A DNA stretch of 20,836 nucleotides from Acidimicrobiales bacterium (GTDB lineage Bacteria > Actinomycetota > Acidimicrobiia > Acidimicrobiales > Acidimicrobilacustridaceae), in contig JALOLF010000084.1 in NCBI GenBank assembly GCA_025456085.1, positions 1 to 20,836 on the forward strand. The letters are read 5' to 3'. The notes below the pieces were generated by a model. That model was not told the origin of the DNA. It ran no database searches and was given only the letters and a program-made list of their open reading frames with translations. Positions 1 to 17,606 of the stretch are shown here, piece by piece. Within the stretch, counting starts at the first letter, position 1. Every line of letters begins with the position of its first letter. Position numbers and translations under genes: made by a program.

Positions 1-547
1 GGCACATCCGCTGGGTCGGCGGCCAGTTCGGGTCGAGCGGCTCGTGTGGCCCACACCGGTGTCACGACCGGGCGAGCTGTCGCCTCACGTCGCGCCGGCG
101 CTGCGCCAGCTCGTGCCAGCCGGGCTCGACGGGGAGGCGACACGTCGACTGTGGGTCGGGCGACGCTGCGAACGGCGACGGCGCCTCGTGAACGAGGAGG
201 TGCTCGAGCGCCTGCTGGAGCCGCTGGGGTTCGCTTCGGTCGCGCCCGACACGCTGTCCTTCGTCCAGCAGATCGAGCTCTTCGCCCAGACGCGGGTGCT
301 GGTGGGCATCGGTGGCGCGGCCCTGACGAACATGGTGTTCATGCCGACCGGCGGCACGGTCATCAGCATCCAACCGCCGGCGATGGGAGGGACGTTCTTC
401 GAGGGCCTTGCGTCGCACTGCGGCCACGAACTGGTCGTGATCTGGGCCGCGCCCAGGGGCGGGGACGCGCTGCGTGCCACCAACGTCGACATCGAGGTCG
501 ACCCGGAGCTCGTGCTCGACGAGGTACGGGCCGTCGTCGACGGCTGA
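1..547 (+). CDS. glycosyltransferase family 61 / DUF563-like protein, C-terminal portion (5' end lies outside window)
   Basis: The frame is open from position 2 to the TGA at 545-547, and the track ORF 44..547 is its in-window part. The translation (RRLWVGRR..RRLVNEEVLERLLEPLGF..IELFAQTRVLVGIGGAALTNMVFMPTGGTVISI) resembles the C-terminal half of DUF563/GT61 capsule-type glycosyltransferases. The amino-acid composition is normal. Confidence 0.5.
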   Translation, partial: AHPLGRRPVRVERLVWPTPVSRPGELSPHVAPALRQLVPAGLDGEATRRLWVGRRCERRRRLVNEEVLERLLEPLGFASVAPDTLSFVQQIELFAQTRVLVGIGGAALTNMVFMPTGGTVISIQPPAMGGTFFEGLASHCGHELVVIWAAPRGGDALRATNVDIEVDPELVLDEVRAVVDG

Positions 548-594
548 CCCGCGGCGGCAGCGCAGCGCCCGAGCAGAGCGCCTGCGGACGCGGG
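548..594. terminator. imperfect GC-rich inverted repeat between convergent genes (possible bidirectional terminator)
   Basis: CCCGCG (548-553) pairs with CGCGGG (589-594), with an internal CGCAGCGCC...GCGCCTGCG imperfect stem. It lies between the stop at 547 (+) and the stop at 609 (-). There is no U-tract, which is usual for high-GC actinobacteria. Confidence 0.2.
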
Positions 595-608
595 CCAGCC
601 GGGCCCGG

Positions 609-992
609 TCAGGCGTCGGGGCGCATCTCGGCCGGGTCCCAGAAGGCGCGCATCTGGGCGATCCTGCCGTCGTCGCCGAAGACCATGGTGTCGATGATGT
701 CGACCACCATGGCGGTGCCGCCCACGTCGGTGACGGCCTGCATGGGGAAGGCCGCCTCGTTGCCGGCGACACGGATCGGTCCGGTGCGGCGCAGCGTGAT
801 GGACGCACTCATGGAACGCACCAGGTCCCAGAACTCGCTGATGGCGGCCGATCCAACCCGCACCTCGGTGCCCACCGGGTCCTCGATGGAGCCGTCGTCG
901 GCGAACAGGCCGACGTAGCCGTCCTTGTCGCCGGCGGAGAACACCTCGATGTACCGCTCGATGGTGGCCCGGATCTCGTCTGCGCTCGGCAT
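609..992 (-). CDS. SnoaL-like / NTF2-fold family protein (ketosteroid-isomerase-like small enzyme)
   Basis: 127-aa ORF with ATG at 990-992 (complement) and a GGGGGAG Shine-Dalgarno complement at 1004-1010. The translation (IERYIEVFSAGDKDGYVGLFADDGSIEDPVG) is typical of SnoaL_2/NTF2-like proteins, with balanced composition and high GC3. Confidence 0.75.
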   Translation of the reverse strand: MPSADEIRATIERYIEVFSAGDKDGYVGLFADDGSIEDPVGTEVRVGSAAISEFWDLVRSMSASITLRRTGPIRVAGNEAAFPMQAVTDVGGTAMVVDIIDTMVFGDDGRIAQMRAFWDPAEMRPDA

Positions 993-1124
993 GGTCGGTG
1001 CTGCTCCCCCAGTTGTTCCCCCGCGCCGACCCGGCGGCCGGGCCGGCGCAGCCTACGCCGGGGCCGGAACGCGGGTGCGATACTGACCCGCCCACCGACC
1101 GATCCCCCTGGGAGCGCCCTGCCC

Positions 1125-1634
1125 GTGGCCCTTGACGACCTCGCCGCCATCCGGCTCGTGCTGACCGACTTCGACGGCGTGCTCACCGACAACCGCGTGC
1201 TCGTCGACCAGGACGGCCGCGAGGCGGTGTTCTGCAACCGGGCCGACGGGCTCGGGTGCGACCTGCTGCGCGCCGCCGGCATCGAGGTGCTGATCGTGTC
1301 GACCGAGACGAACCCGGTGGTGGCGGCGCGTGCCCGCAAGCTGCGCGTCGGCGTGTTGCAGGCGGTCGACGACAAGGCCGCCGCGGTGGCCGGGCTGCTG
1401 GCCGAGCGGGGCCTGCGGCCCGAGGAGGCGCTGTTCATCGGGAACGACGTCAACGATCTCGGCGCCCTGACCACGGTCGGGGTGGCGGTGTGCCCGGCCG
1501 ACGCCCACGCCGACGTGCGGGCGGTGGCGGCGCACGTCACGGGGGCCGTCGGCGGCAGCGGCGTGCTGCGCGAGGTCACCGACCTCCTGCTGGCGGCACG
1601 CCGTGCCGCGACGCCTGACGGGACCGGCACATGA
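1125..1634 (+). CDS. HAD-IIIA phosphatase, KdsC family (ulosonic/nonulosonic acid phosphate phosphatase-like)
   Basis: In-frame GTG at 1125 with GGGAG at 1110-1114. The HAD motif I (LVLTDFDGVLTD) and the GNDVNDL motif match KDO-8-P, KDN-9-P and Neu5Ac-9-P phosphatases. The stop TGA 1632-1634 overlaps the next ATG (ATGA). The track ORF 474..1634 carries a junk N-terminal extension. Confidence 0.8.
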   Translation: MALDDLAAIRLVLTDFDGVLTDNRVLVDQDGREAVFCNRADGLGCDLLRAAGIEVLIVSTETNPVVAARARKLRVGVLQAVDDKAAAVAGLLAERGLRPEEALFIGNDVNDLGALTTVGVAVCPADAHADVRAVAAHVTGAVGGSGVLREVTDLLLAARRAATPDGTGT

Positions 1635-3556
1635 GCGCCGCGCCGCACTCGGCATCCGAGCCGACCCCGGGCGCCACTCCCGTCGGACGCCCCGAGCCAC
1701 CCCCGAGCACCACGCCCACCACAGACGCCGCGCGCGGCGATCGCGGCGATCACGGCGGCGGAACGCTCGAGGTGCTCGCGCTCGTCACCGCCCGCGGCGG
1801 CTCGAAGGGGCTACCCCGCAAGAACGTGATCCCGGTGCTCGGCCGGCCGCTCATCGTCTGGACCATCGGGGCGGCTCTGCGGGCCGAGACCGTCACCCGC
1901 GTCGTCGTGTCCACCGACGACGACGAGATCGCCGAGACGGCCCTGGCGGCGGGCGCCGAGGTGCCCTTCCGGCGGCCGGCGGACCTGGCCGGCGACACGG
2001 TGCGAGACCTGCCCGTGTTCCGCCACGCCCTCGAGTGGCTGCGCGACGCCGAGGGCTACACGCCCGACCTCGTGGTGCACCTGCGACCCACCTCCCCGGT
2101 GCGCCCGCCCGGCCTCGTCGACCGGGGCGTGCGCCGTCTGGCCGCCGAACCGGGGGCGGACTCCCTGCGGGTGGTCTGTGAGCCGGCGAACAATCCCTTC
2201 AAGATGTGGCGCATCGTCGACGACCGTCTCGTACCCCTCGTCGACTCGGGCATCCCCGAGCAGTACAACGAGCCCCGCCAGGCCCTGCCCACCGTCTACT
2301 GGCAGATCGGCGTGCTCGACGTCATCCGCCCCGCCACGATCCTCGAGCAGGGCTCCATGTCGGGCCGGGTGATCCTGCCGCTGGTGGTCGACGCCGCCCT
2401 GGCGGTGGACATCGACGACGCCTCCTCCATCCCCCGAGCCGAGGAGGCGCTGCCGAGGATCTCGCATGAAGCGCCGCCGCCGCTCGGCCGCCCCCCTCGC
2501 CGGGGAGGGCGCGTCGTGATCGCGGTGGTGGGCTCGGGCTCGGTGGCCCGCCGACACCTCACCAACCTGCTGGCCCTGGGCCGACGTGACCTGCTCGTGG
2601 TCAGCGAGCAGCGCACCGGCTCGTCGCTCGACCTCGACGGCGTCGAGGTCCCCCTGACCGCCGACCTCGACGACGCGCTCGAGCGGGCGACGGAGGGGGT
2701 GGTCGTGGCGAACGTGACCTCACGGCACCTCGACACAGCGGCCCGGGCCGTGCAGGCGGGTCGCCACGTGTACCTCGAGAAGCCGGCGTCGGTGTCGGCC
2801 CACGGCGTCGACGAGCTCGACGCCCTCGCCCGGGCACAGGGCGTGACCGTGGCCGTCGGCCAGCAGCTCCGCTTCCACCCGCTGGTGCTGGCACTGCGCG
2901 ACCTCGTGACCGGCGAGCGCCTGGGTCCCCTGCTGGCGGTGCAGGCCGAGCTGGGTGAGCACCTCGCCGACTACCACCCCGACGAGGACCACCGGCTCGG
3001 CTACGCCGCCCGACGCGAGCTGGGCGGCGGCGTGCTGCTCACCCAGATCCACCAGGTCAACGTGCTGCACTGGCTCCTGGGAGCCTTCGACACGGTGGTG
3101 GCCAGTGGTGGGAACACCGGCAGGCTCGGCATCGACGTGGAGGACACCGTCGACTACCTGGCCGTCCCCCGCAGCGATACCCCGGGCAGCGGCACCCCGG
3201 GCGGCGACGCGCCGACCCCGGGGCCGGTGGTGCACGGGCACCTCGACTACCTGCAACGCCCCAAGGTGTGGACCGTGACCGTCCTCGGCACGCTCGCTCG
3301 GGCACACCTCGACCTGCACGCCGGCACCCTCACCGTGCTCTCGCAGACCGGCACGGCCGACACCATCCCCGTCGAGCAGGACCGCAACGCCCTGTTCGTG
3401 GCCGCCCTGGAGGACTTCTTCGCTGCGCTCGCCGAGGGCCGGCCACCCCGGTGCACGCTGGCCGAGGCGACCACGGATCTCCGACTGGTCGACGCCATCC
3501 GTCGCTCGATGCGGTCGCACCAGGTCGAAGCGATCCAGCGCGAGGATGCGCCATGA
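1631..3556 (+). CDS. fusion protein: N-terminal CMP-sugar (acylneuraminate/Kdo-type) cytidylyltransferase domain + C-terminal Gfo/Idh/MocA-family NAD(P) oxidoreductase domain
   Basis: Single 641-aa frame with no internal stop. Residues around 50-275 carry LALVTARGGSKGLPRKNV..LGRPLI (CTP_transf_3, the NeuA/KdsB signature). Residues around 290-640 carry VVIAVVGSGSVARRHL...YLEKPASVS (Gfo/Idh/MocA Rossmann fold and EKP motif). ATGA overlap with the upstream gene. The roughly 45-aa Pro/Thr-rich N-terminus makes the start uncertain (alternative GTG at 1772). Confidence 0.8.
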   Translation: MSAAPHSASEPTPGATPVGRPEPPPSTTPTTDAARGDRGDHGGGTLEVLALVTARGGSKGLPRKNVIPVLGRPLIVWTIGAALRAETVTRVVVSTDDDEIAETALAAGAEVPFRRPADLAGDTVRDLPVFRHALEWLRDAEGYTPDLVVHLRPTSPVRPPGLVDRGVRRLAAEPGADSLRVVCEPANNPFKMWRIVDDRLVPLVDSGIPEQYNEPRQALPTVYWQIGVLDVIRPATILEQGSMSGRVILPLVVDAALAVDIDDASSIPRAEEALPRISHEAPPPLGRPPRRGGRVVIAVVGSGSVARRHLTNLLALGRRDLLVVSEQRTGSSLDLDGVEVPLTADLDDALERATEGVVVANVTSRHLDTAARAVQAGRHVYLEKPASVSAHGVDELDALARAQGVTVAVGQQLRFHPLVLALRDLVTGERLGPLLAVQAELGEHLADYHPDEDHRLGYAARRELGGGVLLTQIHQVNVLHWLLGAFDTVVASGGNTGRLGIDVEDTVDYLAVPRSDTPGSGTPGGDAPTPGPVVHGHLDYLQRPKVWTVTVLGTLARAHLDLHAGTLTVLSQTGTADTIPVEQDRNALFVAALEDFFAALAEGRPPRCTLAEATTDLRLVDAIRRSMRSHQVEAIQREDAP

Positions 3557-4404
3557 GCTCCGGGAGCACCGCCGACCTGTTCGACCTCACCGGGCGGCGC
3601 GCCATCGTGACCGGTGGGGCCGGCCTGCTCGGCCGGGTGTTCGCCCGGGCGCTGCTGGACGTGGGTGCCGAGGTGCACCACCTCGACCGGGACGAGGGCC
3701 GCCTCGAAGAGGTGCTCGCCGCACTGCCCGACGATCTGCGCCGCCGAGCCGTGGCCGTGCGCTGCGACCTCACCGACGAAGACGACGTCGAAGCCACCGT
3801 GGCTGCGCTCGCCCGCCAGGGACGCATCGACATCCTGGTCAACTCCGCTGCCATCGACCCCAAGTTCGACGGCACCGCGGCGGGCGGCGCCGGCCCCGAC
3901 GCGCCCGACGACGGCCATCTCACCCGCTATCCCGTCGATCGGTGGCGCCAGAGCCTCGAGGTGAACCTCACCGGCGTGTTCCTCATCACCCGATCGGTGT
4001 GCCGGGTCATGCAGACCCAGGGCGAACGGGGCGAGGGCACCGTCGTGAACCTGTGCTCGACCTACGGTCTGGTCGGTCCCGACCAGCGGATCTACGACGG
4101 GGCGCCCACCCCGTTCTTCAAGCCGGTCGACTACTCGGTCACCAAGGCCGGCCTGCTCGGCTTCACCCGGGCGGTGGCCTCCCTCTACCGGGACAGCGGC
4201 ATCCGGGTGAACGCCCTCAGCCCCGGCGGGGCCTTCGACGACCACGACCCGGCCTTCGTGGCCGCCTACTCGTACCGCACGATCACCGGACGCATGGCCG
4301 ACCCCGACGAGTATCGTGGCGCCATCGCGTTCCTGTGCAGCGACGCCTCCTCCTACATGACCGGCGCCAACCTGGTCGTCGACGGAGGCTGGACGGCCCT
4401 CTAG
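3553..4404 (+). CDS. short-chain dehydrogenase/reductase (classical SDR) oxidoreductase
   Basis: ATG 3553 overlaps the upstream TGA (ATGA). TGGAGLLG Rossmann motif, YSVTK catalytic Y-x3-K, and C-terminal NLVVDGGWTA. 283 aa. Confidence 0.85.
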   Translation: MSSGSTADLFDLTGRRAIVTGGAGLLGRVFARALLDVGAEVHHLDRDEGRLEEVLAALPDDLRRRAVAVRCDLTDEDDVEATVAALARQGRIDILVNSAAIDPKFDGTAAGGAGPDAPDDGHLTRYPVDRWRQSLEVNLTGVFLITRSVCRVMQTQGERGEGTVVNLCSTYGLVGPDQRIYDGAPTPFFKPVDYSVTKAGLLGFTRAVASLYRDSGIRVNALSPGGAFDDHDPAFVAAYSYRTITGRMADPDEYRGAIAFLCSDASSYMTGANLVVDGGWTAL

Positions 4405-4448
4405 CAGCCCCTGCCAGCACCCCTGCCCCCCCTGCAGCCCTGCATCCC
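4405..4448 (+). repeat. C-rich degenerate CCCTGC-type short direct repeats in intergenic leader
   Basis: CAGCCCCTGC CAGCACCCCTGC CCCCCCTGC AGCCCTGC directly after the SDR stop and about 60 nt upstream of the NeuB-like start. CTGC recurs four times at 9-12 nt spacing. Confidence 0.4.
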
Positions 4449-4505
4449 ACGGTGACCCGAGTGACGGCGAACGACATCCTCCCCACGAGCCCGAGGCCGG
4501 CGCCG

Positions 4506-5393
4506 ATGCTCATCGCCGAGGTGGGCTGCAACCACCTGGGTGATCTCGACGTGGCCAAGCGGTTTATCGAGGTGGCGACCTCCTTCTGCAACGTGACCAC
4601 CGTCAAGTTCCAGAAGCGCGACGTCGCCACCCTGCTGACCGAGGAGCAGCGCAACGCCCCCCACCCGGCGCCGCACAACTCCTACGGCCCCACCTACGGC
4701 GAGCATCGGGAGTTCCTGGAGCTCGACCTCGACCAGCACCGGGAGCTGAAGGAGGCGTGCGAAGCCCGCGGCGCCACCTACACCTGCTCGGTGTGGGACG
4801 CGCCCAGCTTCGAGGAGATCGCCTCGCTCGAACCCGAGCTGATCAAGATCCCGTCGGCCAGCAACACCAACCCCGACCTGCTGGAGGCGGCGTGCCGGCA
4901 CTTCCCCGGGCCGATCCACATCTCCCTCGGCATGACCACCCGCGCCGAGGAGGCCACCATCGTCGAGGTGTTCCGGCGTCACGGTCGCCTCGGCGACCTG
5001 GTGCTCTACGCCTGCACGTCGGGCTATCCGGTGCAGCCCGCCGAGGCCTACCTGCTGGAGATCCTGCGGCTGCGCGAGGCCTACGGCGCCGAGGTGGGGG
5101 GCATCGGCTACTCGGGACACCACAACGGGATCTCGCTCGACCTGGTGGCCTTCACCCTCGGCGCCGACTACCTGGAACGGCACTTCACCCTCGACCGGAC
5201 GTGGAAGGGCACCGACCACGCGGCCTCCCTCGAGCCCGACGGGCTGCGGCGCCTGCGCCGCGACCTGGACTACGCGGCGCAGGCGCTGCAGGCCCGGCCC
5301 ACCGAGATCGTGGAGGTGGAGCGCCCCCAGCGGGCGAAGCTCAAGTGGCTGCGGGGCAACGTGGGCGCGTCGCCGGCGGCGGGCTCGCACTGA
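4506..5393 (+). CDS. N-acylneuraminate (nonulosonic acid) synthase family protein, NeuB-like PEP-condensing TIM-barrel; C-terminal SAF/antifreeze-like domain apparently absent
   Basis: ATG 4506 gives MLIAEVGCNHLGD, the classic NeuB/PseI/LegI N-terminal motif, and the TIM-barrel body follows (KIPSASNTN, GYSGHH). The product is only about 295 aa and its C-terminal 50 aa do not resemble a SAF domain. An alternative upstream GTG lies near 4461. Confidence 0.8.
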   Translation: MLIAEVGCNHLGDLDVAKRFIEVATSFCNVTTVKFQKRDVATLLTEEQRNAPHPAPHNSYGPTYGEHREFLELDLDQHRELKEACEARGATYTCSVWDAPSFEEIASLEPELIKIPSASNTNPDLLEAACRHFPGPIHISLGMTTRAEEATIVEVFRRHGRLGDLVLYACTSGYPVQPAEAYLLEILRLREAYGAEVGGIGYSGHHNGISLDLVAFTLGADYLERHFTLDRTWKGTDHAASLEPDGLRRLRRDLDYAAQALQARPTEIVEVERPQRAKLKWLRGNVGASPAAGSH

Positions 5394-5487: not shown

Positions 5488-7383
5488 GTGACCGAGACCC
5501 TGGTCCACCTCGACGTCGACCCCGCCGACGCCTCGCTGCTGGCGCTGCTGCGCGCCCGGGTGGGCGCCGGCGCGCGGCTCGCGGTCCCCGCCGGCACGGC
5601 ACTCGACGGGGAATGGGCCGGGCCGGTGGTGACGGTCACCGGCCGGGCCGCGTTCTCGATCCTCGACGACACGGACCGACTGGTCGAGACGCTCATCGAC
5701 ACCGCACGCACCCGGGGCGCGGACGAGGACCTGCTGGCCGCGCTGGAGGCGGCCCGCTTCCCCCTGGCCGTGGCGCTGGCACCGGACTGGCACCGCTGGC
5801 GGACCGTGAGCCGGCTCATCGCCGAGCACCGACCCCGGCGGCTGGTGGTGGTCTCGTCGTCGATGCGATCGCGTCGCGACGCCGCCCGGTTCGCCCGGTC
5901 GTTCCCGGGCGTGGCGGTGGAGGTGCTCGACGTCCGGACCCGCGGCGCCCGGCTGGAGCGCTGGCGGCAGCGGATCCACGCAGCCCGGGTGCACGCCGAG
6001 TCCCGGGTGCACGCCGAATCCGCCCGTGGCGGCGCGGCGCCCCACGACCGGCCCGTCGTGGCCTTCGTGGAGTTCTTCCCCAACAACCTCAAGGCGTCGC
6101 TGCCCGTGGCCGGGGCGCTGGCCGAGCACCACGGCCTGCGACCGATGTGGATCGCCTGCCGCCGGGCCGTCGTCGATGCGCTCGCCGACGCGGATGCCCT
6201 CGGGGGCACGCGCGCGACCGACGACGTGGTCACGGCGCCCGCGACGCTGGAGCTGCCGCCCGACCCGTTGCTCCACCGCGCCACCGCGCGGCGCCTCACC
6301 GCTGCCGGCCTGCGCGACGCGGTGCGCGCCTTCGCCACCGGGTTCCCACCCCCTCCCGGAACTCGGGCGGATGGATGCCGGAGACCGACCTCGGAGGACC
6401 CGATTTCGGAGCTTGTGCGGGCGGGGGCGCGGGCGCGGGCGGGGGTGGTGGACCCGTGGCTCGTGCCCACCGTGCGCCGTCATGCCGTCGTCACGGCGGC
6501 GGGCGGCGAGCGGTGGCGGCGCTGGCTCGCCGAGACGATCACCGGACTCGATGCCCGGCTCGTGGTCGTGACCACGCCCTACGACCTGACCGCTCGCGCC
6601 GGCGTCGTGGCAGCCCACCGCGTCGGTCTCCCCACGGCGTGGATCCAACACGGCATCTACAACCCCCGCCACGCCCACCGCAGCATCGACGTGGACCTGG
6701 CACTGCTGTGGGGCGAGTACGAGGCCGCCGACCTCCGGGACCGGCAGCCTCCGATCGGCGAGATCGCGGCGGTGGGCTCCCCGGTGCACGATCCCCTCGC
6801 CGTCCATCGAGCCGTGCGGGCGCAACGGCGCTTCCCCGCCGAGGGCGAGCCGCTGCGGGTGACCTATCTGGCCTCCCACTCACGGTGGTTCTACACGCTC
6901 GACGACGCGGCCCGGGCGACGTCGGTGGTGTGCGAGGCCGCGTCCCGGCTTCCCGACGTCGAGCTGACCGTCAAGTGCCATCCGCACGACGACACGGGCG
7001 TCCCCGAGGCCGCGGCGGGTCCCTTCCCGGGCGTCGTGGTGGTGCGCCATGGCGACAGCCGGGAGCTCACCGTCGCCTCCGACTTGGTGATCGTGCGGGA
7101 TTCGACAGCCGGCTACGAGGCCTGCATGGCCGACGTCGCGCTCCTGGAGCTCGAGATCGGCGAGCGGGTGCTCGACTTCTCCTACACCCACCTCGGAGCG
7201 GCCCGACCCGTGCGCAACGCCGACGACATCGTCGCTGCTGTGCGGGACCTGCGCGAGGACCCTGCGGCACGTGCGGCCCTCGCCGCGGGGCGGGAGCGGT
7301 TCCGGGTCCACCACCTCCACGGCGGCCACGGCGACGCCGCCACGACCGCCGCCGACCAGCTGGCGCGCCTCCTGACGCGCTGA
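5488..7383 (+). CDS. putative TagF/KpsC-like GT-B polymerase or transferase (K-x-HP motif); function unknown
   Basis: 631-aa frame with normal composition, whereas the overlapping alternate frames are Arg/Gly/Pro junk. The C-terminal third carries RVTYLASHSRWFYT ... LTVKCHPHDD ... DLVIVRDSTAGYEACMADVALLE. This resembles the acceptor-binding, HP and nucleotide-binding motifs of CDP-glycerol glycerophosphotransferases and KpsC/KpsS-like transferases. GTG start at 5488. Confidence 0.55.
   Translation: MTETLVHLDVDPADASLLALLRARVGAGARLAVPAGTALDGEWAGPVVTVTGRAAFSILDDTDRLVETLIDTARTRGADEDLLAALEAARFPLAVALAPDWHRWRTVSRLIAEHRPRRLVVVSSSMRSRRDAARFARSFPGVAVEVLDVRTRGARLERWRQRIHAARVHAESRVHAESARGGAAPHDRPVVAFVEFFPNNLKASLPVAGALAEHHGLRPMWIACRRAVVDALADADALGGTRATDDVVTAPATLELPPDPLLHRATARRLTAAGLRDAVRAFATGFPPPPGTRADGCRRPTSEDPISELVRAGARARAGVVDPWLVPTVRRHAVVTAAGGERWRRWLAETITGLDARLVVVTTPYDLTARAGVVAAHRVGLPTAWIQHGIYNPRHAHRSIDVDLALLWGEYEAADLRDRQPPIGEIAAVGSPVHDPLAVHRAVRAQRRFPAEGEPLRVTYLASHSRWFYTLDDAARATSVVCEAASRLPDVELTVKCHPHDDTGVPEAAAGPFPGVVVVRHGDSRELTVASDLVIVRDSTAGYEACMADVALLELEIGERVLDFSYTHLGAARPVRNADDIVAAVRDLREDPAARAALAAGRERFRVHHLHGGHGDAATTAADQLARLLTR
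5986..6021 (+). repeat. 18-bp tandem duplication inside the CDS (encodes RVHAES RVHAES)
   Basis: CGGGTGCACGCCGAGTCC followed by CGGGTGCACGCCGAATCC, one mismatch. Confidence 0.6.
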
Positions 7384-7406
7384 GCCGCCGCTGCAACCGC
7401 GGCCCG

Positions 7407-7423
7407 CTGTCGGAATCCGACAG
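7407..7423. promoter_or_regulatory. perfect 17-bp palindrome CTGTCGGA-A-TCCGACAG (candidate operator or RNA hairpin)
   Basis: 8-bp arms around a single central A, read directly from the sequence. Confidence 0.35.
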
Positions 7424-7468
7424 CCCACCGCCGAACCAGCGTCCACGCCGCACTGGAAACCCGCCCCG

Positions 7469-7485
7469 CTGTCGGAATCCGACAG
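7469..7485. promoter_or_regulatory. second copy of the perfect 17-bp palindrome CTGTCGGAATCCGACAG
   Basis: Identical to 7407-7423 and lies 158 bp upstream of the SPFH gene start. Confidence 0.35.
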
Positions 7486-7623
7486 TCCACCGCGGAACCA
7501 CGCTGGGCACGCGGCTCCTCCTGGACACGCGGTAAACCCGCCGGGCCGCGCCCTGTGCCGCGATCGACCGCTACTACACTGCCCGTCTTGTGCCCGGGCG
7601 GGGAACGGGTCCCGCCTGCGCGC

Positions 7624-7642: not shown

Positions 7643-9115
7643 ATGCCGGACAAAGACGAGGCCTCCGAGCCGTCCCCGGGGGCGGGCCGTCCCGACGAGT
7701 CGCCGGGTGGCACCGCCGACGCACCCGCCACGCCCCCCACGCCACCGGCCCCGGCTGCGCAGACCCCGCCGACCGTCCCCCAGCCCCCCGCCCCCGCCCC
7801 CGCCGCAGCCGCGGCCGCGGCCGGCCCGACGCCAGAGGGCGAGCCCACAGCGCCCCCGGTGACCGCTCCCGCCGGCGACGCGTCCGGCCCGCAGGCGCCA
7901 ACCGAGCCGGGCGAGCAGCTCCCCCGTCCCAAGAAGAAGGCCGCCAAGAAGGCCGCTGCCAAGCGCACCGCTCCACTTCTGCACACCCCCGAGCCGCCCA
8001 CCACGGAGGTGCCACCGGTCAAGGTGAGCTGGCGGGGCATCGCCGACGACGCCCCCGAGAAGCCCGCCAAGCGCAGCGGCGTGCTGGCTGCGGTCGGCCG
8101 GGGCGTCGCCGCGCTCCTCGAGGCGATCGGCCTCAAGCGCAAGCGCAACGCCGACGGCAGCCTCCAGCCCCGTGCGTGGAAGCGGCTCGGCATCGTCGGC
8201 GGCAGCGCGGTGGTCGTGCTCTTCCTGTGGACGATGGTGCACATCGTGCCGGCCGGTTCGGTGGGCGTGCCCATCACCCTGGGCAAGGCCGGCGGCGAGC
8301 TGGGGCCGGGCCTGCAGCTCACCGTCCCCTTCACCCAGGTCAAGACGATGTCCACCCGGACCCAGAACTACACCATGACCGCCATCCAGGGCGAGGGCCA
8401 GTATGCCGGCGACGACTCCGTGGCCGTGCTGGGCCGCGACGGCGGCGCGGCCAACGTCGACGCCACCGTGCTGTTCCGCCTCGACCCCGGGGAGGCCACC
8501 CGGGTCTACGAAGAGGTCGGCACCGACTTCCCGACCAAGCTGGTGCGCCCCGCGGCGCGCACGTGCATCCGCGCCGCCTTCACCAAGTACGACATGGTCG
8601 AGGCCGCCACCAGCGCCTGGGAGCCCATGGCCGACGAGATCTCGGACTGCATGCGGGAACGGATCGAGCCCCGCGGCATCCAACTGCTGGACTTCCAGCT
8701 GCGTGAGGTCCGCCTGGCCGACCCGGTCCAGCAGGCCATCGACGCCAAGGTCGCCGCGCAGCAGCAGGCCGAGCGTCAGCGCTTCGAACGCCAGACGGCC
8801 GAGCAGCAGGCCGACATCTCCCGCATCAACGCCATCGCCACCGCCGACTCCCAGCAGATCCTGGCCTGTGGCGGCACCGTCACCACCGTCGAGAAGGACG
8901 GCCAGCAGGTGCAGGTGGTGACCCCCAACCCGACCGAGCAGTGCGACCAGGCCCAGCTCACCCCGCAGTACCTGCAGTACACCTACATCCAGGCGCTGAA
9001 GCAGCTCGTCGACTCGCCGAACAACTCGACCATCATCCTGCCGATGGACCAGAACCTGACGCCGCTGCTGAACATCGACGGCACCACGGCCACCACCACG
9101 GCGCCCGGCGGCTGA
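7643..9115 (+). CDS. SPFH/band-7 (prohibitin/HflC/flotillin-like) membrane protein with a long Pro/Ala/Thr-rich disordered N-terminal tail
   Basis: Strong RBS. About 190 aa of low-complexity sequence (PATPPTPPAPAAQTPP...KKKAAKKAAAKR) is followed by a TM helix (LGIVGGSAVVVLFLWTMV). The SPFH core (VPAGSVGVPITLGKAGGELGPGLQLTVPFTQVKTMSTRTQNYT ... VLFRLDP) and a Gln/Ala/Glu-rich coiled-coil C-terminal region follow. Confidence 0.85.
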   Translation: MPDKDEASEPSPGAGRPDESPGGTADAPATPPTPPAPAAQTPPTVPQPPAPAPAAAAAAAGPTPEGEPTAPPVTAPAGDASGPQAPTEPGEQLPRPKKKAAKKAAAKRTAPLLHTPEPPTTEVPPVKVSWRGIADDAPEKPAKRSGVLAAVGRGVAALLEAIGLKRKRNADGSLQPRAWKRLGIVGGSAVVVLFLWTMVHIVPAGSVGVPITLGKAGGELGPGLQLTVPFTQVKTMSTRTQNYTMTAIQGEGQYAGDDSVAVLGRDGGAANVDATVLFRLDPGEATRVYEEVGTDFPTKLVRPAARTCIRAAFTKYDMVEAATSAWEPMADEISDCMRERIEPRGIQLLDFQLREVRLADPVQQAIDAKVAAQQQAERQRFERQTAEQQADISRINAIATADSQQILACGGTVTTVEKDGQQVQVVTPNPTEQCDQAQLTPQYLQYTYIQALKQLVDSPNNSTIILPMDQNLTPLLNIDGTTATTTAPGG

Positions 9116-9140: not shown

Positions 9141-9180
9141 CCGGACGTCGGCGACCAGACGTCGACGACCGGACGTCGGC
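9141..9180. repeat. 12-bp perfect direct repeat CCGGACGTCGGC x2 with GACGTC palindromic cores
   Basis: Copies at 9141-9152 and 9169-9180, with GACCAGACGTCGACGA between them. The second copy abuts the wzt stop codon. Confidence 0.4.
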
Positions 9181-9974
9181 TACATGTCCTCGGCGGCGGT
9201 GGCCTCGTCGAGGACGCCCTCGAAGCGCAGGTAGGCGTCGACCACGTCGGGAGCGGGGCCCTCGGCCATCACCCGGCCCTTGTCGAGCCACAGGCACCGG
9301 TCGGCGAGCGACGAGATGATCCGCACGCCGTGGGTGATGATCATCACGGTGCAGTCGCGCTCGCACAGCTCGCTGATCTTGTCCGAGGACTTCTTCTTGA
9401 AGCGGGCGTCACCGGCGGCCAGAGCCTCGTCGATGAGCACGATCTCGGGGTCGAGGTGCACCGCGACTGCGAACCCGAGCCGGGCCGACATGCCCGAGGA
9501 GTAGGTGCGCATCGGGTAGTCGATGGCGTCGGCCAGCTCCGCGAAGGCCACGATGGCCTGGTACTGCTCCTGCACCTCCTCAGGGGCGAGGCCCATGGCC
9601 AACCCGCCGAGCAGCACGTTCTCGCGGCCGGTGAGCTCCCGGTTGAAGCCGATGCCGAGAGAGAACAGCGGCGTGACGTGGCCCCGCACGACGACACGAC
9701 CCTCGCTCGGGGTGAGGATGCCGCAGATGGTGCGGAACAACGTGGACTTGCCGGCGCCGTTGCGGCCGATCACGCCGCACACCGAGCCCCGCTGCACGGT
9801 GAAGCTCACCCCCCGCAGGGCCTCCACGTAGCGGGTCACCTTGCGTCGTTGGGTCATGCCCACGAGCGTGCGCTTGAGCGTGGCCTCCTGACTCGAGCGG
9901 TAACGCAGCCAGAGGTCCTGCACCTCGATGGTGGGTGGAACCGCCAGCGACGCGGTCTCAGAGTCGAACGGCAA
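9180..9974 (-). CDS. wzt: ABC transporter ATP-binding protein, polysaccharide/teichoic-acid exporter type (Wzt/TagH/KpsT-like), without a C-terminal carbohydrate-binding extension
   Basis: Walker A GRNGAGKST, signature YSSGMSARLGFA, Walker B IVLIDEALAAGD, and H-loop ITH, across 264 aa. TAG stop at 9180-9182. The start is probably TTG at 9972-9974 (first in-frame start), which would overlap the wzm end by 17 nt, so the start is uncertain. Confidence 0.88.
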   Translation of the reverse strand: MPFDSETASLAVPPTIEVQDLWLRYRSSQEATLKRTLVGMTQRRKVTRYVEALRGVSFTVQRGSVCGVIGRNGAGKSTLFRTICGILTPSEGRVVVRGHVTPLFSLGIGFNRELTGRENVLLGGLAMGLAPEEVQEQYQAIVAFAELADAIDYPMRTYSSGMSARLGFAVAVHLDPEIVLIDEALAAGDARFKKKSSDKISELCERDCTVMIITHGVRIISSLADRCLWLDKGRVMAEGPAPDVVDAYLRFEGVLDEATAAEDM

Positions 9975-10809
9975 GGTCCCGCTCCCGACGCAGGAAGTAG
10001 AAGGCCCCCAACCCGAAGACGGCGACCGCGAAGACGGTCATCATGAACAGGCCCTTGGCGGTGGGGCCGTGCCCGGTGAAGATCAGCTCCAGCGAACCCA
10101 GGAACCAGTACATGGGGTTCAGCTTGAGGTACGGGGCGATGTTGGGCGGCACCTCGGACACGGTGAACAGCACCGGCGACACGTACAGCCAGATGCGCGT
10201 GGCGTAGGGGAGGATGTCGGACGCGTCCCGGAAGAACACCGTGACGGTCGAGGCCAGCAGGGCCAGACCCAGGTTGAACATCGTCAACAGCACCAGGATC
10301 AACGGCAGCCACAACAGCGCGGCCGTGATGGGCTGGCCCAGCAGCACGTGCAGCCCCATGTACACGACGAAGGTGGGCAGGAAGTCGAGGAAGGCCTCGA
10401 TCACGGCCACCAGGGGGAACACCAAGCGGGGCAACGAGGAGTTGAGCACGGTGTTGCGGTTGGACAGGATCGCCTTCGTCCCGCCCATGAGCGACGCCCG
10501 GGTGTAGCCGAAGAAGAACACGGCCATGATGAGGTGGGCGAGCAGCGCGTTGCGCTCGGCATCGGTGCCGATGGGACGCACCACGGTGCGCAGCAGGTAG
10601 TAGACCGCCGCCTCGAGGAGCGGATCGAGCACGATCCAGGCCTGGCCGATGACCGTGTCGTAGTGCTGCGCCTTTAGCTCGCTGCGCGACAGGTGCCACA
10701 TGAAGGCCCGGCGACCCCAGATCTCGCGCAGGTAGCGGTGCAGCGGCGGCAGACCGGTGTCGGTGGGCTCGTAGACGTGGACGGTGGGAGACGACGAGGG
10801 CTCGGCCAT
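9958..10809 (-). CDS. wzm: ABC-2 type polysaccharide exporter permease (Wzm/TagG/KpsM-like)
   Basis: About six hydrophobic TM segments (LLAHLIMAVFFFGY, LVFPLVAVIEAFLDFLPTFVVYMGL, ALLWLPLILVLLTMFNLGLALL, MMTVFAVAVFGLGAFYF). I chose the internal ATG (MAEPSSS, complement 10807-10809) over the track start at 10902, whose first 31 aa look like a non-coding extension. Confidence 0.82.
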   Translation of the reverse strand: MAEPSSSPTVHVYEPTDTGLPPLHRYLREIWGRRAFMWHLSRSELKAQHYDTVIGQAWIVLDPLLEAAVYYLLRTVVRPIGTDAERNALLAHLIMAVFFFGYTRASLMGGTKAILSNRNTVLNSSLPRLVFPLVAVIEAFLDFLPTFVVYMGLHVLLGQPITAALLWLPLILVLLTMFNLGLALLASTVTVFFRDASDILPYATRIWLYVSPVLFTVSEVPPNIAPYLKLNPMYWFLGSLELIFTGHGPTAKGLFMMTVFAVAVFGLGAFYFLRRERDLAVRL

Positions 10810-10903
10810 GGGGTGCACTGGCCCCGACCGGCTCGGCGCGCGGGCCAGCCGGGGAGGAGGGGTGGAGGTACGGTCAGGGTAGCCAACCGGGAGACCACGC
10901 ACG

Positions 10904-10922
10904 GGCCGGTTCGGGACCGGCC
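10904..10922. promoter_or_regulatory. 19-bp inverted repeat GGCCGGT-tcggg-ACCGGCC in the divergent wzm / lipoprotein intergenic region
   Basis: 7-bp perfect arms with a 5-bp spacer, about 95 bp upstream of the wzm start and 100 bp upstream of the lipoprotein gene start. Confidence 0.3.
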
Positions 10923-11021
10923 GCGAGCCTCCGATCGGCTGGGGTCGGCTAGGTTACGCGTTCAACGACGTCCGTCGCGCCGAGTCCCGCGCTCGATCCG
11001 GCACGCAGGAGATCCGATTCC

Positions 11022-11864
11022 GTGAAACGACCCCGCTCGGCACTGCTGCTCGCGCTCCGACTGCTGTTGGCGTGCACCGTGCTGTTGGCGGTTGCCGGGT
11101 GCAGCGACGACGAGGAGCCGACGTCGTCCGGCTCCCGGGGCACCGCCAGCGACGCCGCAACCAAGCCCACGGTCGGCGCCGGCGACCGGGCGACCACGGT
11201 GACCATCTACGCACCCGACCAGCTCCAGCGGGCCATGAACGAGCTCAAGGGCGGGTTCGAGTTCCTGACCGAGTACACCGTCGTGATCACGCAGGGCTCC
11301 GAGACCGACCTCATCGCCGGTGTGCAGGGCGGCGACCGACCCAACCTGCTCGTCGCCGACACCACCGAGCTCATGCCCCTCGTCGACAACGGCACGATCA
11401 TCGCCACCCCCACCGACTTCGGCACCGATCCCCTGCTGATGTTGACCGCCAAGGGCAACCCCGAGGGCGTCCCGGCGCAGATCGGGGTCTTCGGCGAGGG
11501 AAGCGCCTTCGTGACCGGCCTGTGCGCGCCGGACGTGCCGTGCGGCGCCGCGGCGCAGTCCGTGTTGCAGCAGGCCGGCGTCACACCAGCAGCCGACACC
11601 GTGGAGCCCACGGGTCGCCGACTCACCGACAATGTGGCCAAGGGCAAGGTCGACGTGGCGCTGGTGTTCCGCAGCGACTACATGAACCGGTTCTTCCGGA
11701 CCGGCGCGCTGGCGGATCCCGACTTCGCGCCCTACGTGATCACCTACGACATCGGCACCATCGAGGAGACCGACGCCTCCAAGGCCTTCCTCGAGTTCCT
11801 GGGCTCGATCGCCGGCCGCACGATCCTCGTGCAGCGGGGCCTCCTCCCGCTCGGCTCGGTGTGA
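11022..11864 (+). CDS. ModA/WtpA-like oxyanion (molybdate/tungstate/sulfate family) periplasmic-binding lipoprotein
   Basis: GTG start with AGGAGA at 11007-11012. Signal peptide plus lipobox LAVAG-C. The mature protein aligns by eye to ModA: VTIYAPDQL (like ITVFAAASL), GDRPNLLVADT (like GAPADLFISAD), KVDVALVFRSDY (like LGIVYGSDA), and a SKAFLEFL C-terminal segment. Confidence 0.7.
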   Translation: MKRPRSALLLALRLLLACTVLLAVAGCSDDEEPTSSGSRGTASDAATKPTVGAGDRATTVTIYAPDQLQRAMNELKGGFEFLTEYTVVITQGSETDLIAGVQGGDRPNLLVADTTELMPLVDNGTIIATPTDFGTDPLLMLTAKGNPEGVPAQIGVFGEGSAFVTGLCAPDVPCGAAAQSVLQQAGVTPAADTVEPTGRRLTDNVAKGKVDVALVFRSDYMNRFFRTGALADPDFAPYVITYDIGTIEETDASKAFLEFLGSIAGRTILVQRGLLPLGSV

Positions 11865-11877
11865 GCACCGGCCGCTG

Positions 11878-12870
11878 ATGGGGACCGACTCAGCCGCGCT
11901 GGCGGGCCGAACCGCCGTGTGCGTCACCGGCATGCACCGCAGCGGCACCTCCTTCGCGACCCGGGCCGTGCAGTTGCTGGGCGTGTCGTTGGGAGACCCC
12001 GAGCGCCTCATGCCGCCGGGACGGGACAACCCGAGGGGCTACTTCGAGAACGCCCGCGTCAAGGAGCTCGACGACGAGATCCTCGCCCACCTCGACGGAT
12101 CGTGGGACGCCCCACCGGTGCTGGCACCGGGCTGGGAGCTCGACGCGGGCCTCGACGAGCTGCGGGCACGGGCGGCAGCCGAGCTGGCCGAGACCTTCGC
12201 CGCCACGCCCCCCGGTGAGCCCATCGGCTGGAAGGACCCCCGGCTGTCGCTGCTCCTGCCCCTGTGGCGCACCGTCTCGCCCATCTCCACCACCATCGTG
12301 GTGGTGCGCGACCCGGCCGAGGTGGCGGCGTCGCTGCACACCCGCAACGGCATGCCCCCGGCGCAGGCTGCCCTGCTGTGGTTGCGCTACCTGCTGGCGG
12401 CCACCACGAACGATCCCGGCCACCTGCTGGTGCGTCACCGGGACTTCTTCGAAGACCTCCCGACCACGCTGGCCCGCATCGCCACCCACCTCGCCCTGCC
12501 CGCACCGGACGAAGCGACGCTCGAGGCGGTGCGCGGCCACCTCGACCCGTCGCTGCACCACCACGACAACCGACGCTCCACCCAAGCCGCGTCCGCGCCG
12601 GCTGCCACCGCCCCGGCGGAGTCCGACCCGGCTGGAGCCGACCCGGTGACCCGTCTGGCGACGCAGGTGTGGAACGGCGGCGACGTCGACGTGACGCTGG
12701 TGCCCGAGCCGATGGCCGCCGCCGTCCGGGAGGGGTGGTTGCGACCGCCCGTCGACGGCGAGGCCTTGGCCCGGGCGCGGGCCAAGGTGGTGGAGCTCAC
12801 CGAGGAGATCCGCCGTCGCAACCGGGAGAAGGCCGCGGCCAGGGCCGCGGCCCGGGGCGGGACGGGGTGA
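11878..12870 (+). CDS. sulfotransferase family protein (Sulfotransfer_3/Stf0-like; PAPS-dependent)
   Basis: 5'-phosphosulfate-binding P-loop VTGMHRSGTSF and the GWKDPRLS motif. 330 aa. ATG 11878 lies 13 nt after the lipoprotein stop. Confidence 0.75.
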   Translation: MGTDSAALAGRTAVCVTGMHRSGTSFATRAVQLLGVSLGDPERLMPPGRDNPRGYFENARVKELDDEILAHLDGSWDAPPVLAPGWELDAGLDELRARAAAELAETFAATPPGEPIGWKDPRLSLLLPLWRTVSPISTTIVVVRDPAEVAASLHTRNGMPPAQAALLWLRYLLAATTNDPGHLLVRHRDFFEDLPTTLARIATHLALPAPDEATLEAVRGHLDPSLHHHDNRRSTQAASAPAATAPAESDPAGADPVTRLATQVWNGGDVDVTLVPEPMAAAVREGWLRPPVDGEALARARAKVVELTEEIRRRNREKAAARAAARGGTG

Positions 12871-13742
12871 GCGACGCCCCGCAGCTGGTGCACCCCGAGG
12901 GCTGGGTCCTGGACTGGATCACCCGGGACCGGCTCGCCCGACAGCTGCGCAGGGCGGATCCCGCCGTCGACGGCATCGTGGCGCCAGCGACCGAACTTCC
13001 CGCCGGTGCGTCGTTCCGGGTCCACGCCGAGCGGTGCGCCCTGCGGCCCGTGGACGCGCTCGAGCCACTGGGGTCGGCCACGACGGCCGACGCCACCTCG
13101 GTGCGCGGCGCGCTGCTGGTGCGACCCGGCGTGCGGTGCACGGTCGAGGGCGACGTCGTCGCTGCGCCCGGCGCCCACCTGCTGGTCGATCCCGGTACCC
13201 ACGCCCACGACCCCTGGCAGCCGCCCACGGCGCTGGTCGACGCCTCGCCCGCGGCCCGGCCGCCGTTCCCGTGGCGACCGGTCGTGGCGGTGGTGGTGTG
13301 CGGCCCGGACCCCGATCCCGACCGGCTCGACTGGGCCCGCTCGATGGTCAACGCCCTGCTACGCCGCGACGTCGAGGGCCGGCTCGCCGTGACCGCCGCG
13401 CCCGAGGGGCTGCACCTCACCCGCCCCTGTCTGGCCTCACCGGCCTCGCTCGAGGCCCTCGCCCCCGACGTGGTGGTGGCGGCCGACGACGCGGCGCGGG
13501 AGGCCGCTCCGGGGTGGTGCCGACGCCGCTCGACCGTGGTGGTCGAGGTGGCCGACGATCCCCTGCTCGGCGTCGAGCTGGTTTCGTGGCGGCTGGGTCG
13601 AGCCCAGGGCCGACTGCGGGCCCGGATCGGGGAGCGGGTGGCACCGGCGACGGTGGCCGACCTGGCCCGCCGCCTGAGTGCCGGACCCCAGCCCGAACCA
13701 CCGCAGCCCAAACCCGCGCTGCGGGCGGTGGCCGAGCCGTGA
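12867..13742 (+). CDS. hypothetical protein (no recognisable domain)
   Basis: 291-aa frame bounded by GTGA overlaps at both ends (12867-12870 and 13739-13742) and sandwiched inside the coupled operon. Typical high-GC composition. The competing minus-strand ORF 12797..14941 is Gly/Arg/Ser low-complexity junk. Confidence 0.5.
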   Translation: MSDAPQLVHPEGWVLDWITRDRLARQLRRADPAVDGIVAPATELPAGASFRVHAERCALRPVDALEPLGSATTADATSVRGALLVRPGVRCTVEGDVVAAPGAHLLVDPGTHAHDPWQPPTALVDASPAARPPFPWRPVVAVVVCGPDPDPDRLDWARSMVNALLRRDVEGRLAVTAAPEGLHLTRPCLASPASLEALAPDVVVAADDAAREAAPGWCRRRSTVVVEVADDPLLGVELVSWRLGRAQGRLRARIGERVAPATVADLARRLSAGPQPEPPQPKPALRAVAEP

Positions 13743-16857: not shown

Positions 16858-17606
16858 CGCCGCCGCTACCCACCTTCCTCGTCATCGGCGCGCAGAAGAG
16901 CGCCACCCGCTGGCTGCGACTCAACCTGTTGGCCCATCCCGAGGTGTACCTCGCCCCGACCGAGCTCGAGTTCTTCGACCACGACGACCGCTTCGAGCGA
17001 CTCGGCCCCGACTGGTACCGCCAGCAGTTCGCCGACTGGGACGGCGCCCCCATCATCGGGGAATCGACACCCGGCTACCTGATGTGGCGGCGCCGGCCCG
17101 AGGTGGTGGCCGAGCGCATCGAGCGCACCCTGCCCGACGTGCGGCTGGTCGCCCTGCTGCGCAACCCGGTCGACCGGGCCCACTCGGCCATGGTGCATCA
17201 CATCACCCGGGAACGGCTCCGACCCGACAGCTCCCTGGTGGCGCTGGCCCGCACCCGGCCCGCCGACACCGACTGGCTGGGACTCGTCGCCGGCGGGTGG
17301 TACGGGGCGAGCCTCGAACCGTACGTGCGCCGCTTCGGCGAGCGGCTGCTGGTGCTGCTGCACGACGACGTCGGCACCGACCCGGCCGGCGTGTACGCCG
17401 CCGTGCTGCGCCACCTGGGCGCCGACGCCACCTTCGTACCCCCCGAGCTCGACCAGGTCCGCTTCTCCAACCGTGCGGCCGCACCCCGAGACGTGCGCCC
17501 GCTGTCCGACGCGGACCGCCGCGAGCTGCACAACTACTTCGTCGACGACCTCCGCCGGCTCGAGGACCTCCTCGACCGGGACCTGCGTTGCTGGGAGCCC
17601 GCATGA
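16854..17606 (+). CDS. sulfotransferase (Sulfotransfer_1 family, carbohydrate sulfotransferase-like)
   Basis: 5'-PSB motif TFLVIGAQKSATRWL (like PKSGTTW) and 3'-PB motif LLRNPVDRAHS (like RNPxDxxVS). 250 aa. ATGA overlaps at both ends. Confidence 0.85.
   Translation: MTPPLPTFLVIGAQKSATRWLRLNLLAHPEVYLAPTELEFFDHDDRFERLGPDWYRQQFADWDGAPIIGESTPGYLMWRRRPEVVAERIERTLPDVRLVALLRNPVDRAHSAMVHHITRERLRPDSSLVALARTRPADTDWLGLVAGGWYGASLEPYVRRFGERLLVLLHDDVGTDPAGVYAAVLRHLGADATFVPPELDQVRFSNRAAAPRDVRPLSDADRRELHNYFVDDLRRLEDLLDRDLRCWEPA

Follow-up and report, generated by a model that had tools for sequence, protein, structure and literature searches.

A cytidylyltransferase-dehydrogenase reading frame in an Acidimicrobiales contig is very probably two neighbouring genes of an ElaABC-like nonulosonate cassette merged by a 16-nt deletion

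Introduction

A 20,836-bp contig (JALOLF010000084.1) from a metagenome-assembled genome (MAG) named ‘Acidimicrobiales bacterium’ in NCBI contains a 641-codon open reading frame (ORF) at 1631..3556 on the plus strand, which joins a CMP-nonulosonate cytidylyltransferase (CT) to a Gfo/Idh/MocA (GFO) dehydrogenase. The whole contig was analysed and is referred to below as the window. An earlier reading of its sequence (the original prediction) took this ORF for a bifunctional enzyme of nonulosonic acid metabolism which channels its product from one domain to the other. Here, the ORF is compared with described systems, with contigs of the same strain and with related loci of other taxa.

The ElaABC cassette of Acinetobacter baumannii KL49, which has homologues in Vibrio vulnificus, is described as a ‘CMP-Leg5,7Ac2 8-epimerase’, Leg5,7Ac2 being 5,7-di-N-acetyllegionaminic acid (PMC13656337; PMC9676051). 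ElaB is a CTP-transferase. ElaA, a 323-amino-acid (aa) Gfo/Idh/MocA protein, was proposed to oxidise the C8 hydroxyl of CMP-Leg5,7Ac2, and ElaC, a short-chain dehydrogenase/reductase (SDR), to reduce the resulting 8-keto compound again, giving the 8-epimer. Capsule requires each of the elaA, elaB and elaC genes, and crystal structures exist (PMC13656337). The window has the same three families (GFO, CTP_transf_3 and a ketoacyl reductase-like SDR) encoded side by side near a NeuB-family synthase gene in what appears to be a surface polysaccharide locus. In ElaABC the order is GFO-CT-SDR and each enzyme is a protein of its own; in the window the order is CT-GFO-SDR and CT is joined to GFO, very probably by a deletion private to this contig.

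Fusions of this general kind, a cytidylyltransferase with a redox domain, have a known precedent. EpaA, encoded in A. baumannii prophages, has an N-terminal CTP_transf_3 domain fused to an aldo-keto reductase (PF00248) and, together with the SDR EpaB, converts 5,7-di-N-acetylpseudaminic acid (Pse5Ac7Ac) to its 8-epimer in vivo (PMC12053666). It resembles the window ORF in combining a cytidylyltransferase and a redox domain and in having an SDR partner, but its reductase is not of the Gfo/Idh/MocA family and it is a stable, recurrent gene rather than an indel seen on one contig. A phage search with the window SDR for EpaB relatives gave only generic SDR matches of at most 39% identity. A third comparison is offered by NeuA-HAD fusions of about 410 aa, which carry a C-terminal phosphatase of the YrbI or Kdn-9-P type (Kdn, 2-keto-3-deoxynononic acid) and are the closest CT relatives (54-63% identity). 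Their fusion partner is a phosphatase, not a dehydrogenase, and in the window the phosphatase is encoded by a gene of its own (1125..1634, plus strand).

Comparison with contigs of the same strain

When translated, 1631..3556 reads through 641 codons to a terminal stop with zero internal stops, and GC content at the third codon position (GC3) is 0.88-1.00 in one frame from about 1730 to 3450. As this signal runs through both domains, they are read in the same frame and the ORF is not a chance product of high G+C; to this extent the original prediction holds. The NCBI annotation of the contig has a 594-aa ‘Gfo/Idh/MocA family oxidoreductase’ (MCU0269967.1) starting at V48 (GTG 1772).

The 90%-identity cluster of the window protein also contains a 284-aa CT and a 346-aa GFO. 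The former (P0240) is identical to the window product through aa 274 and then ends with VALGIAEDLA*, the latter (P0241, P0242) is identical to window aa 296-641. These separate CT and GFO genes adjoin on five other contigs: two from NCBI assemblies, GCA_025491015.1 (L085) and GCA_025490975.1 (L086), one from the Logan assembly of SRR12684591 (L087) and two from Joint Genome Institute (JGI) metagenomes 3300037524 (L088) and 3300037408 (L089). Aligned to the window by blastn, each of the five shows one 16-nt gap. Mismatches are absent from L087 and L089; L085 and L086 have one each and L088 has six, all at its ragged end, so that they cannot be taken for microdiversity. Excluding ragged ends and N runs, the agreement is 0-1 mismatch over 2.9-6.9 kb, and no further indel is present across up to 7.8 kb compared; an apparent second, 24-nt indel in the L086 neuB gene is merely an N run.

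The 16 nucleotides present in L085-L089 and missing from the window between 2451 and 2452 are CGTCGCGTTGGGCATC. With them restored, the CT gene encodes 284 aa and ends at TGA 2467-2469, followed by a 46-nt spacer and the GFO gene starting from GTG 2516, the start at which GFO is called in L085-L089. The same CT end is readable in the window itself: on translation in three frames, the +2 frame ends with ‘...AEDLA*’ at TGA 2467-2469, which is out of frame in the 641-codon ORF. The only recorded source of the fused 641-aa product is the window's contig. We therefore consider it very probable, on comparison of these sequences, that the 641-codon ORF represents two ordinary neighbour genes merged by a 16-nt (3n+1) deletion private to this contig. 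A frameshift merging two genes had been named beforehand as something to check by comparing loci; merging by an error or a deletion is borne out by the indel relative to the five same-strain contigs.

Between the deletion and the CT stop codon downstream of it lie 15 nt. Loss of the 16 nt shifts the CT frame beyond its stop, across the 46-nt spacer and into the GFO frame, and the last 10 CT residues are swapped for 21 residues of out-of-frame and intergenic translation. What looks like an interdomain linker, PRISHEAPPPLGRPPRRGGRV (2453..2515, plus strand), consists of five codons of the frameshifted CT 3' end and the translated spacer. Its GC content at the three codon positions is 0.86/0.76/0.81 versus 0.77/0.48/0.95 in the CT domain (1772..2452, plus strand) and 0.80/0.47/0.92 in the GFO domain (2516..3556, plus strand), a pattern similar to that of intergenic DNA in this contig (0.76/0.79/0.70). 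The Shine-Dalgarno site of the GFO gene, GGGGAGGG (2502-2509), is still intact inside the fused ORF, as is the native GTG (2516-2518) 6 nt further downstream. The linker is former intergenic DNA with relics of a gene boundary; an evolved fusion would be expected to have a linker of the coding type free of such relics.

If the deleted allele is real, its effect may be mild, as the CT would only lack 10 variable C-terminal residues downstream of the Mg-binding DID motif. GFO would gain an N-terminal extension, with its own Shine-Dalgarno site and GTG available for internal initiation.

Other routes to the fusion were considered and rejected. TGA 2517-2519, which overlaps the GFO start codon as ‘GTGA’ in the manner of the related locus L001, might pass for the ancestral CT stop; the same-strain contigs place this stop at 2467-2469. 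A 1-nt slip in the C6 run at 2491-2496 would also join the frames, and the same contigs show a 16-nt deletion further upstream instead. Slippage via the 8-nt repeat GCCGAGGA flanking the region would predict a 30-nt loss, which is not the one observed. A 12-mer, GAGGAGGCGCTG, occurs in the HAD gene (1420-1433) and, in the deleted allele only, exactly at the junction (2439-2452); at this length it would not mislead an assembler, and its recurrence is probably coincidental.

The upstream part of the ORF is also doubtful. The Pro/Thr-rich leader of about 45 aa that the original prediction placed ahead of the catalytic motifs does exist as an in-frame stretch of 47 codons (1631..1771, plus strand). 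However, its GC content at the codon positions (0.74/0.77/0.83) is similar to that of intergenic DNA (0.76/0.79/0.70) and unlike that of coding DNA (0.77/0.48/0.95), and orthologues start right at ‘(E/D)VLA(I/L)xPARGGSK’ with no leader. The start calls differ: NCBI uses GTG 1772, giving the 594-aa product, while other gene callers include the leader (P0240). Judging from composition and orthologue starts, the leader is probably a spacer that is not translated and that separates the HAD stop from the CT start. This bears on the ATGA coupling claimed for both ends of the ORF. Both overlaps are present, one with the HAD stop at 1631-1634 and one with the SDR start at 3553-3556, SDR being the downstream neighbour. 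By our estimate, chance alone would place an A before a TGA stop about as often as A occurs in this DNA. If the leader is not translated, the coupling to the upstream HAD gene may be coincidental.

Real allele or assembly artefact

We lean slightly towards the deletion being a real allele, read-supported and either minor or sample-specific. It is also quite possible that it is purely an artefact of assembly, consensus building or the binning pipeline, and that the organism has the two-gene form only. The latter explanation agrees with five out of six assemblies of otherwise identical sequence retaining the 16 nt, with the fused product being known from a single contig, and with the length and position of the deletion, since a frame-shifting length and a site just before the stop are what a chance error needs to produce a fusion. 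On the other hand, the absence of any other indel relative to up to 7.8 kb of the other contigs does not look like a noisy assembly, De Bruijn assemblers require reads spanning a junction, there is no repeat at the breakpoints to mislead an assembler, and a clean 16-nt loss differs from errors of the homopolymer type. An exact-pattern scan for either allele in one JGI metagenome collection found no match; the collection evidently does not include L088 and L089, so this result is uninformative on allele frequency.

Several points count against a simple deletion story. The split form is found in five out of six assemblies and the fused form on one contig only, which speaks against an established allele. 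A clean 16-nt deletion is not a typical sequencing error, and in the alignment the breakpoints have no microhomology, so no simple slippage mechanism explains it. The comparison was made between assemblies rather than reads, a level at which a real allele and an artefact are not separated. Finally, the five contigs with the split allele are perhaps not all independent samples, at least two JGI samples being distinct.

Real or artefactual, the fused form is not a conserved architecture. The case calls for caution, as a single 16-nt indel is all that separates a striking fusion, known from one MAG contig, from the usual two-gene arrangement in the same strain, and the 641-aa ORF should not be recorded as a novel bifunctional architecture.

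CT and GFO genes in other taxa

We gathered 28 loci across phyla in which CT and GFO are encoded at most 4 kb apart. Of these, 26 (the five same-strain contigs and 21 loci from other organisms, with either gene order) have them as separate genes, in agreement with the original prediction that they are normally distinct, and two (L002 and L090) have them fused. An SDR gene is present in 27 of the 28 loci, NeuB in 22 and HAD in 11. Three loci (L007-L009) have the same HAD-CT-GFO-SDR-NeuB order as the window at 44-72% identity, and no fusion is found among the orthologues at 42-72% identity. The CT and GFO genes of orthologous loci overlap by 4 nt, the junction in L001 being GTGA. Thus, CT and GFO are normally separate and usually translationally coupled members of a HAD-CT-GFO-SDR-NeuB cassette. 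The closest GFO relatives (40-55% identity) all stand alone, with a length of about 330 aa, and in cultured Alphaproteobacteria the CT/GFO/SDR trio is located on plasmids and annotated as three separate genes. The presence of two genes with a stop at the junction, in the same strain as well as in other taxa, is what the original prediction had itself named as a sign of a sequencing or assembly artefact.

Fusions of the same partners do occur elsewhere. The architecture search covered 1.84 billion cluster representatives, and among the best 150 matches listed there was one end-to-end CT-GFO match, a 616-aa protein from a Clostridiales MAG (P0245, 34% identity). The search also returned two proteins of the reverse GFO-CT order (P0252, P0317). 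Other arrangements are CT-HAD-GFO (P0002, L002 2493..4880) and GFO-SDR (P0213). Clustered at 90%, all five proteins form groups of one or two members, and each is known from one or two contigs. They share domain families and a NeuB/HAD/SDR context with the window, but are only 30-55% identical and are of independent origin.

The strongest candidate for a true CT-GFO fusion is P0245. In its low-GC genome, chance is less likely to produce a long open frame than in the window. The surrounding locus (L090 3829..8723, Clostridiales MAG, JGI 3300042612) encodes NeuB, a CBS and mannose-6-phosphate isomerase-like protein, HAD, the 616-aa CT-GFO protein and SDR, a gene set hinting at a Kdn-type pathway.

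Enzymes of the cassette

Each product encoded between 1125 and 5393 belongs to the family expected of it. In the fused ORF, Pfam finds CTP_transf_3 (PF02348) at aa 50-122 (5.1e-17, above the Pfam cut-off) and the N, C3 and C domains of GFO_IDH_MocA at aa 297-631 (PF01408 1e-12, PF22725 8.9e-8 and PF02894 1.2e-9, all above their cut-offs). The presence of a cytidylyltransferase and of a complete Gfo/Idh/MocA dehydrogenase, as originally proposed, is thus supported by both Pfam and NCBIfam. The NCBIfam PseF model spans aa 49-271, i.e., the entire CT fold, and is matched over positions 1-217 of 222; as the score of 113.8 bits is below the equivalog cut-off of 205.7, CT is not a PseF equivalog. 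Its match to the CMP-NeuAc synthetase 6ifd in PDB (4.6e-30) extends over aa 2-226, and it is 68% identical to the separate CT of L001. In the 641-aa numbering, the CT motif ARGGSKGLPRKN, which is P-loop-like and of the RGGSKG(L/I)PRKN type, occupies aa 54-65, and the C-terminal Mg-binding Asp pair is D260-I-D262 (D213/D215 when counted from V48).

The NAD(P)-dependent GFO (346 aa, ElaA-like) carries a GxGxxG/A-type motif VVGSGSVA at its N-terminus and the catalytic motifs EKP with K89 and TQIH179Q, with a gap of 90 residues between Lys and His. Its family matches also include inositol dehydrogenase (3.5e-19) and UDP-GlcNAc 3-dehydrogenase (5e-11).

SDR, an ElaC-like oxidoreductase of the ketoacyl reductase type (3553..4404, plus strand, 283 aa), matches Pfam adh_short_C2 at 9.8e-42, has the Y194xxxK198 motif and gives FabG-like PDB matches. 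The nonulosonate synthase NeuB (4506..5393, plus strand) matches Pfam NeuB at 9.5e-60 and is called identically in L085 and L088. It has only 295 aa, with no C-terminal SAF domain usual in sialic acid synthases; its homologue in L003 is a 748-aa protein with CBS, SAF and AP_endonuc_2 domains. The first gene of the cassette (1125..1634, plus strand) codes for a 169-aa HAD-IIIA phosphatase of the KdsC or Kdn-9-P phosphatase type. It matches NCBIfam KdsC at 2.1e-30 and KDN-9-P phosphatase at 1.6e-26, each under the equivalog cut-off, as well as Pfam Hydrolase_3, and contains the DFDGVLTD and GNDVND motifs. Its coding-frame signal starts near 1050-1125, and the same 169-aa gene is called in L085-L089.

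Proposed function of the cassette

Co-oriented and adjacent CT (ElaB/NeuA-like), GFO and SDR genes (1772..4404) lie beside NeuB (4506..5393), so the family assignments and synteny of the cassette are plain. We would class the trio as an ElaABC-like cassette that serves a different nonulosonate, arranged as HAD-CT-GFO-SDR-NeuB. Besides gene content, putative active site residues agree: K89/H179 of GFO correspond to K91/H181 of ElaA and D213/D215 of CT (from V48) to D211/D213 of ElaB, in both cases matched by numbering rather than by direct alignment, and Y194xxxK198 of SDR corresponds to Y168/K172 of ElaC.

By analogy with ElaABC, NeuB would condense phosphoenolpyruvate with a hexose, probably a 6-phosphate because a dedicated phosphatase of the KdsC or Kdn-9-P type is present. 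HAD would release the free nonulosonate, which CT would activate with CTP to a CMP-sugar. On the CMP-sugar, GFO would then convert one secondary hydroxyl by oxidation into a ketone, which SDR would re-reduce from the opposite face to give a CMP-activated epimer. The latter would feed the glycosyltransferases, sulfotransferases and ABC exporter encoded downstream. This is the most likely mechanism, whose step order, substrate and carbon we infer from the Acinetobacter ElaABC and from gene content. A redox step on the ulosonic acid or its CMP derivative, as suggested by the original prediction, is plausible by analogy with ElaA (PMC13656337); a channelling fusion is not part of it.

The substrate is probably different from that of ElaABC. 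Genes of the lgaA-F type (coding for an aminotransferase, a dehydratase, an N-acetyltransferase and a NeuC-type epimerase) are present neither in the 20.8-kb window nor in the 7.4 kb upstream available in L085; instead of lga genes, the locus has a phosphatase of the KdsC or Kdn-9-P type and a short NeuB, which suggests a Kdn-type or neuraminic acid (Neu)-type sugar. A Kdn-type substrate is a reasonable guess given the lack of legionaminic acid (Leg), pseudaminic acid (Pse) and NeuC genes and the mannose-6-phosphate isomerase-like gene in the Clostridiales cassette.

Some caution is due with respect to this assignment. No Leg or Pse pathway gene of the window points to the substrate or to the carbon that would be epimerised. 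The chemistry of ElaABC itself is based on genetics, crystal structures, docking and polymer structure, not on in vitro assays (PMC13656337; PMC9676051). Furthermore, the window enzymes are 32-40% identical to those of a GFO-CT-SDR cassette on a Sulfitobacter plasmid, used as a stand-in for the Ela sequences, and PDB sequence searches with the window enzymes gave no Ela-named chain among the matches.

GFO and SDR might instead remodel a hexose or hexose-phosphate precursor before the NeuB step, or yield a stable keto or otherwise modified sugar. The GFO family also acts on nucleotide-hexoses and free sugars, as reflected in the UDP-GlcNAc 3-dehydrogenase and inositol dehydrogenase matches mentioned above, and WlbA and YjhC are among the distant PDB matches of GFO. 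We consider this explanation unlikely. GFO is tightly and almost universally coupled to CT and SDR, with 4-nt overlaps and in either order, suggesting that it acts together with CT; it is repeatedly fused to CT; and the presence of the homologous ElaABC trio correlates with the 8-epimer in the polymer (PMC9676051; PMC13656337).

That the fusion is an evolved and selected bifunctional enzyme channelling the CMP-sugar from CT to GFO, the central claim of the original prediction, is largely refuted for this locus and highly improbable: CT and GFO do catalyse consecutive steps in the ElaABC model (PMC13656337), the same partners are sporadically fused elsewhere (P0245, P0252, P0317, P0002, P0213) and EpaA sets a precedent with in vivo evidence (PMC12053666), but the fused and split forms of the same strain are one indel apart, L085-L089 carrying two genes with a stop at the junction, the linker is untouched intergenic DNA with the internal Shine-Dalgarno site and GTG intact, the architecture is common neither to the population nor to the orthologues (five same-strain and 21 other loci have separate genes, no orthologue at 42-72% identity being fused), and the fusions from elsewhere all form 90% clusters of no more than two members.

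The ElaABC-like reading makes the locus an actinobacterial, probably non-legionaminic example of a cassette which would activate, oxidise and re-reduce its substrate. The sporadic CT/GFO/SDR/HAD fusions recurring in metagenomes lend independent support to joint action of these enzymes on CMP-nonulosonates, and the cassette product, if determined, could reveal a new sialic acid-like stereoisomer in environmental Actinomycetota. More speculatively, if the deletion is real and both halves of the 641-aa (or 594-aa) protein are active, the window may have caught a fusion at its birth, the frame having skipped a stop codon and the spacer serving as a linker between enzymes of successive steps, in the manner of EpaA or P0245; separately, the cassette of Acidimicrobiia and other phyla may make an undescribed Kdn- or Neu-type epimer for a sulfated surface polymer. 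We regard this extended scenario as doubtful.

Genes surrounding the cassette

The G+C content of the window is 70-77% and 104 ORFs of at least 80 aa can be found in it, therefore open frames by themselves mean little. Real genes were told apart from chance high-GC ORFs by a frame plot of GC3. Several long ORFs, 474..1634, 3546..5393, 13034..15889 and 16253..19282, turned out to be artefacts that join out-of-frame sequence to real genes, and ORF 5613..7535 likewise represents a wrong high-GC frame. In particular, the 615-aa ORF 3546..5393 was rejected as the downstream neighbour of CT-GFO, as it consists of an out-of-frame stretch joined to NeuB. The true genes behind these ORFs are HAD (1125..1634), SDR (3553..4404), NeuB (4506..5393), 12867..13742 (no known family), 13739..15889, 15886..16857, 16854..17606 and 17603..19282.

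Upstream of the cassette, the frame plot and Pfam place the C-terminus of a GT61 glycosyltransferase (up to 547, plus strand) and a SnoaL-like protein (609..992, minus strand). Directly 3' of NeuB lies a gene for a 631-aa protein (5488..7383, plus strand), which is conserved in L088 and could be a candidate nonulosonate transferase or polymerase. Together with 12867..13742, 15886..16857 and 17603..19282 (291, 323 and 559 aa), it has a clear coding signal but is matched by no model of Pfam or NCBIfam. L088 and the window are collinear up to 7801. Collinearity with L085 ends at 6925, and the last 99 nt of that contig (14401-14499) repeat window 7041-7139 exactly in reverse complement, which marks a fold-back break in the assembly of L085 rather than a feature of the window.

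Further downstream, 7643..9115 (plus strand) codes for an SPFH (Band 7) protein with an N-terminal region of about 200 aa outside the domain. Within the stretch 7650-7800 all three codon positions have a GC content of about 0.8-0.88, and both the start site and the N-terminal extension of this protein are uncertain. Among the related loci, L001 has a DegT-family aminotransferase gene split into 91-aa and 289-aa ORFs (3718..4831 of a 1.19-Mb contig), likely a frameshift error in that assembly or a pseudogene.

The remaining genes include an ABC-2 exporter pair on the minus strand (9180..10902, with the individual genes at 9180..9974 and 9958..10902), an SBP_bac_11 solute-binding protein (11022..11864, plus strand), two sulfotransferases (11878..12870 and 16854..17606, both on the plus strand) and two multidomain glycosyltransferases, GT2+GT4 (13739..15889, plus strand) and GT1(GT4)+GT2 (19305..20822, minus strand). 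With these surroundings, the setting of the cassette looks like a sulfated surface glycopolymer locus (9180..17606). In the related locus L001, three sulfotransferase genes are located beside the CT, GFO and SDR genes.

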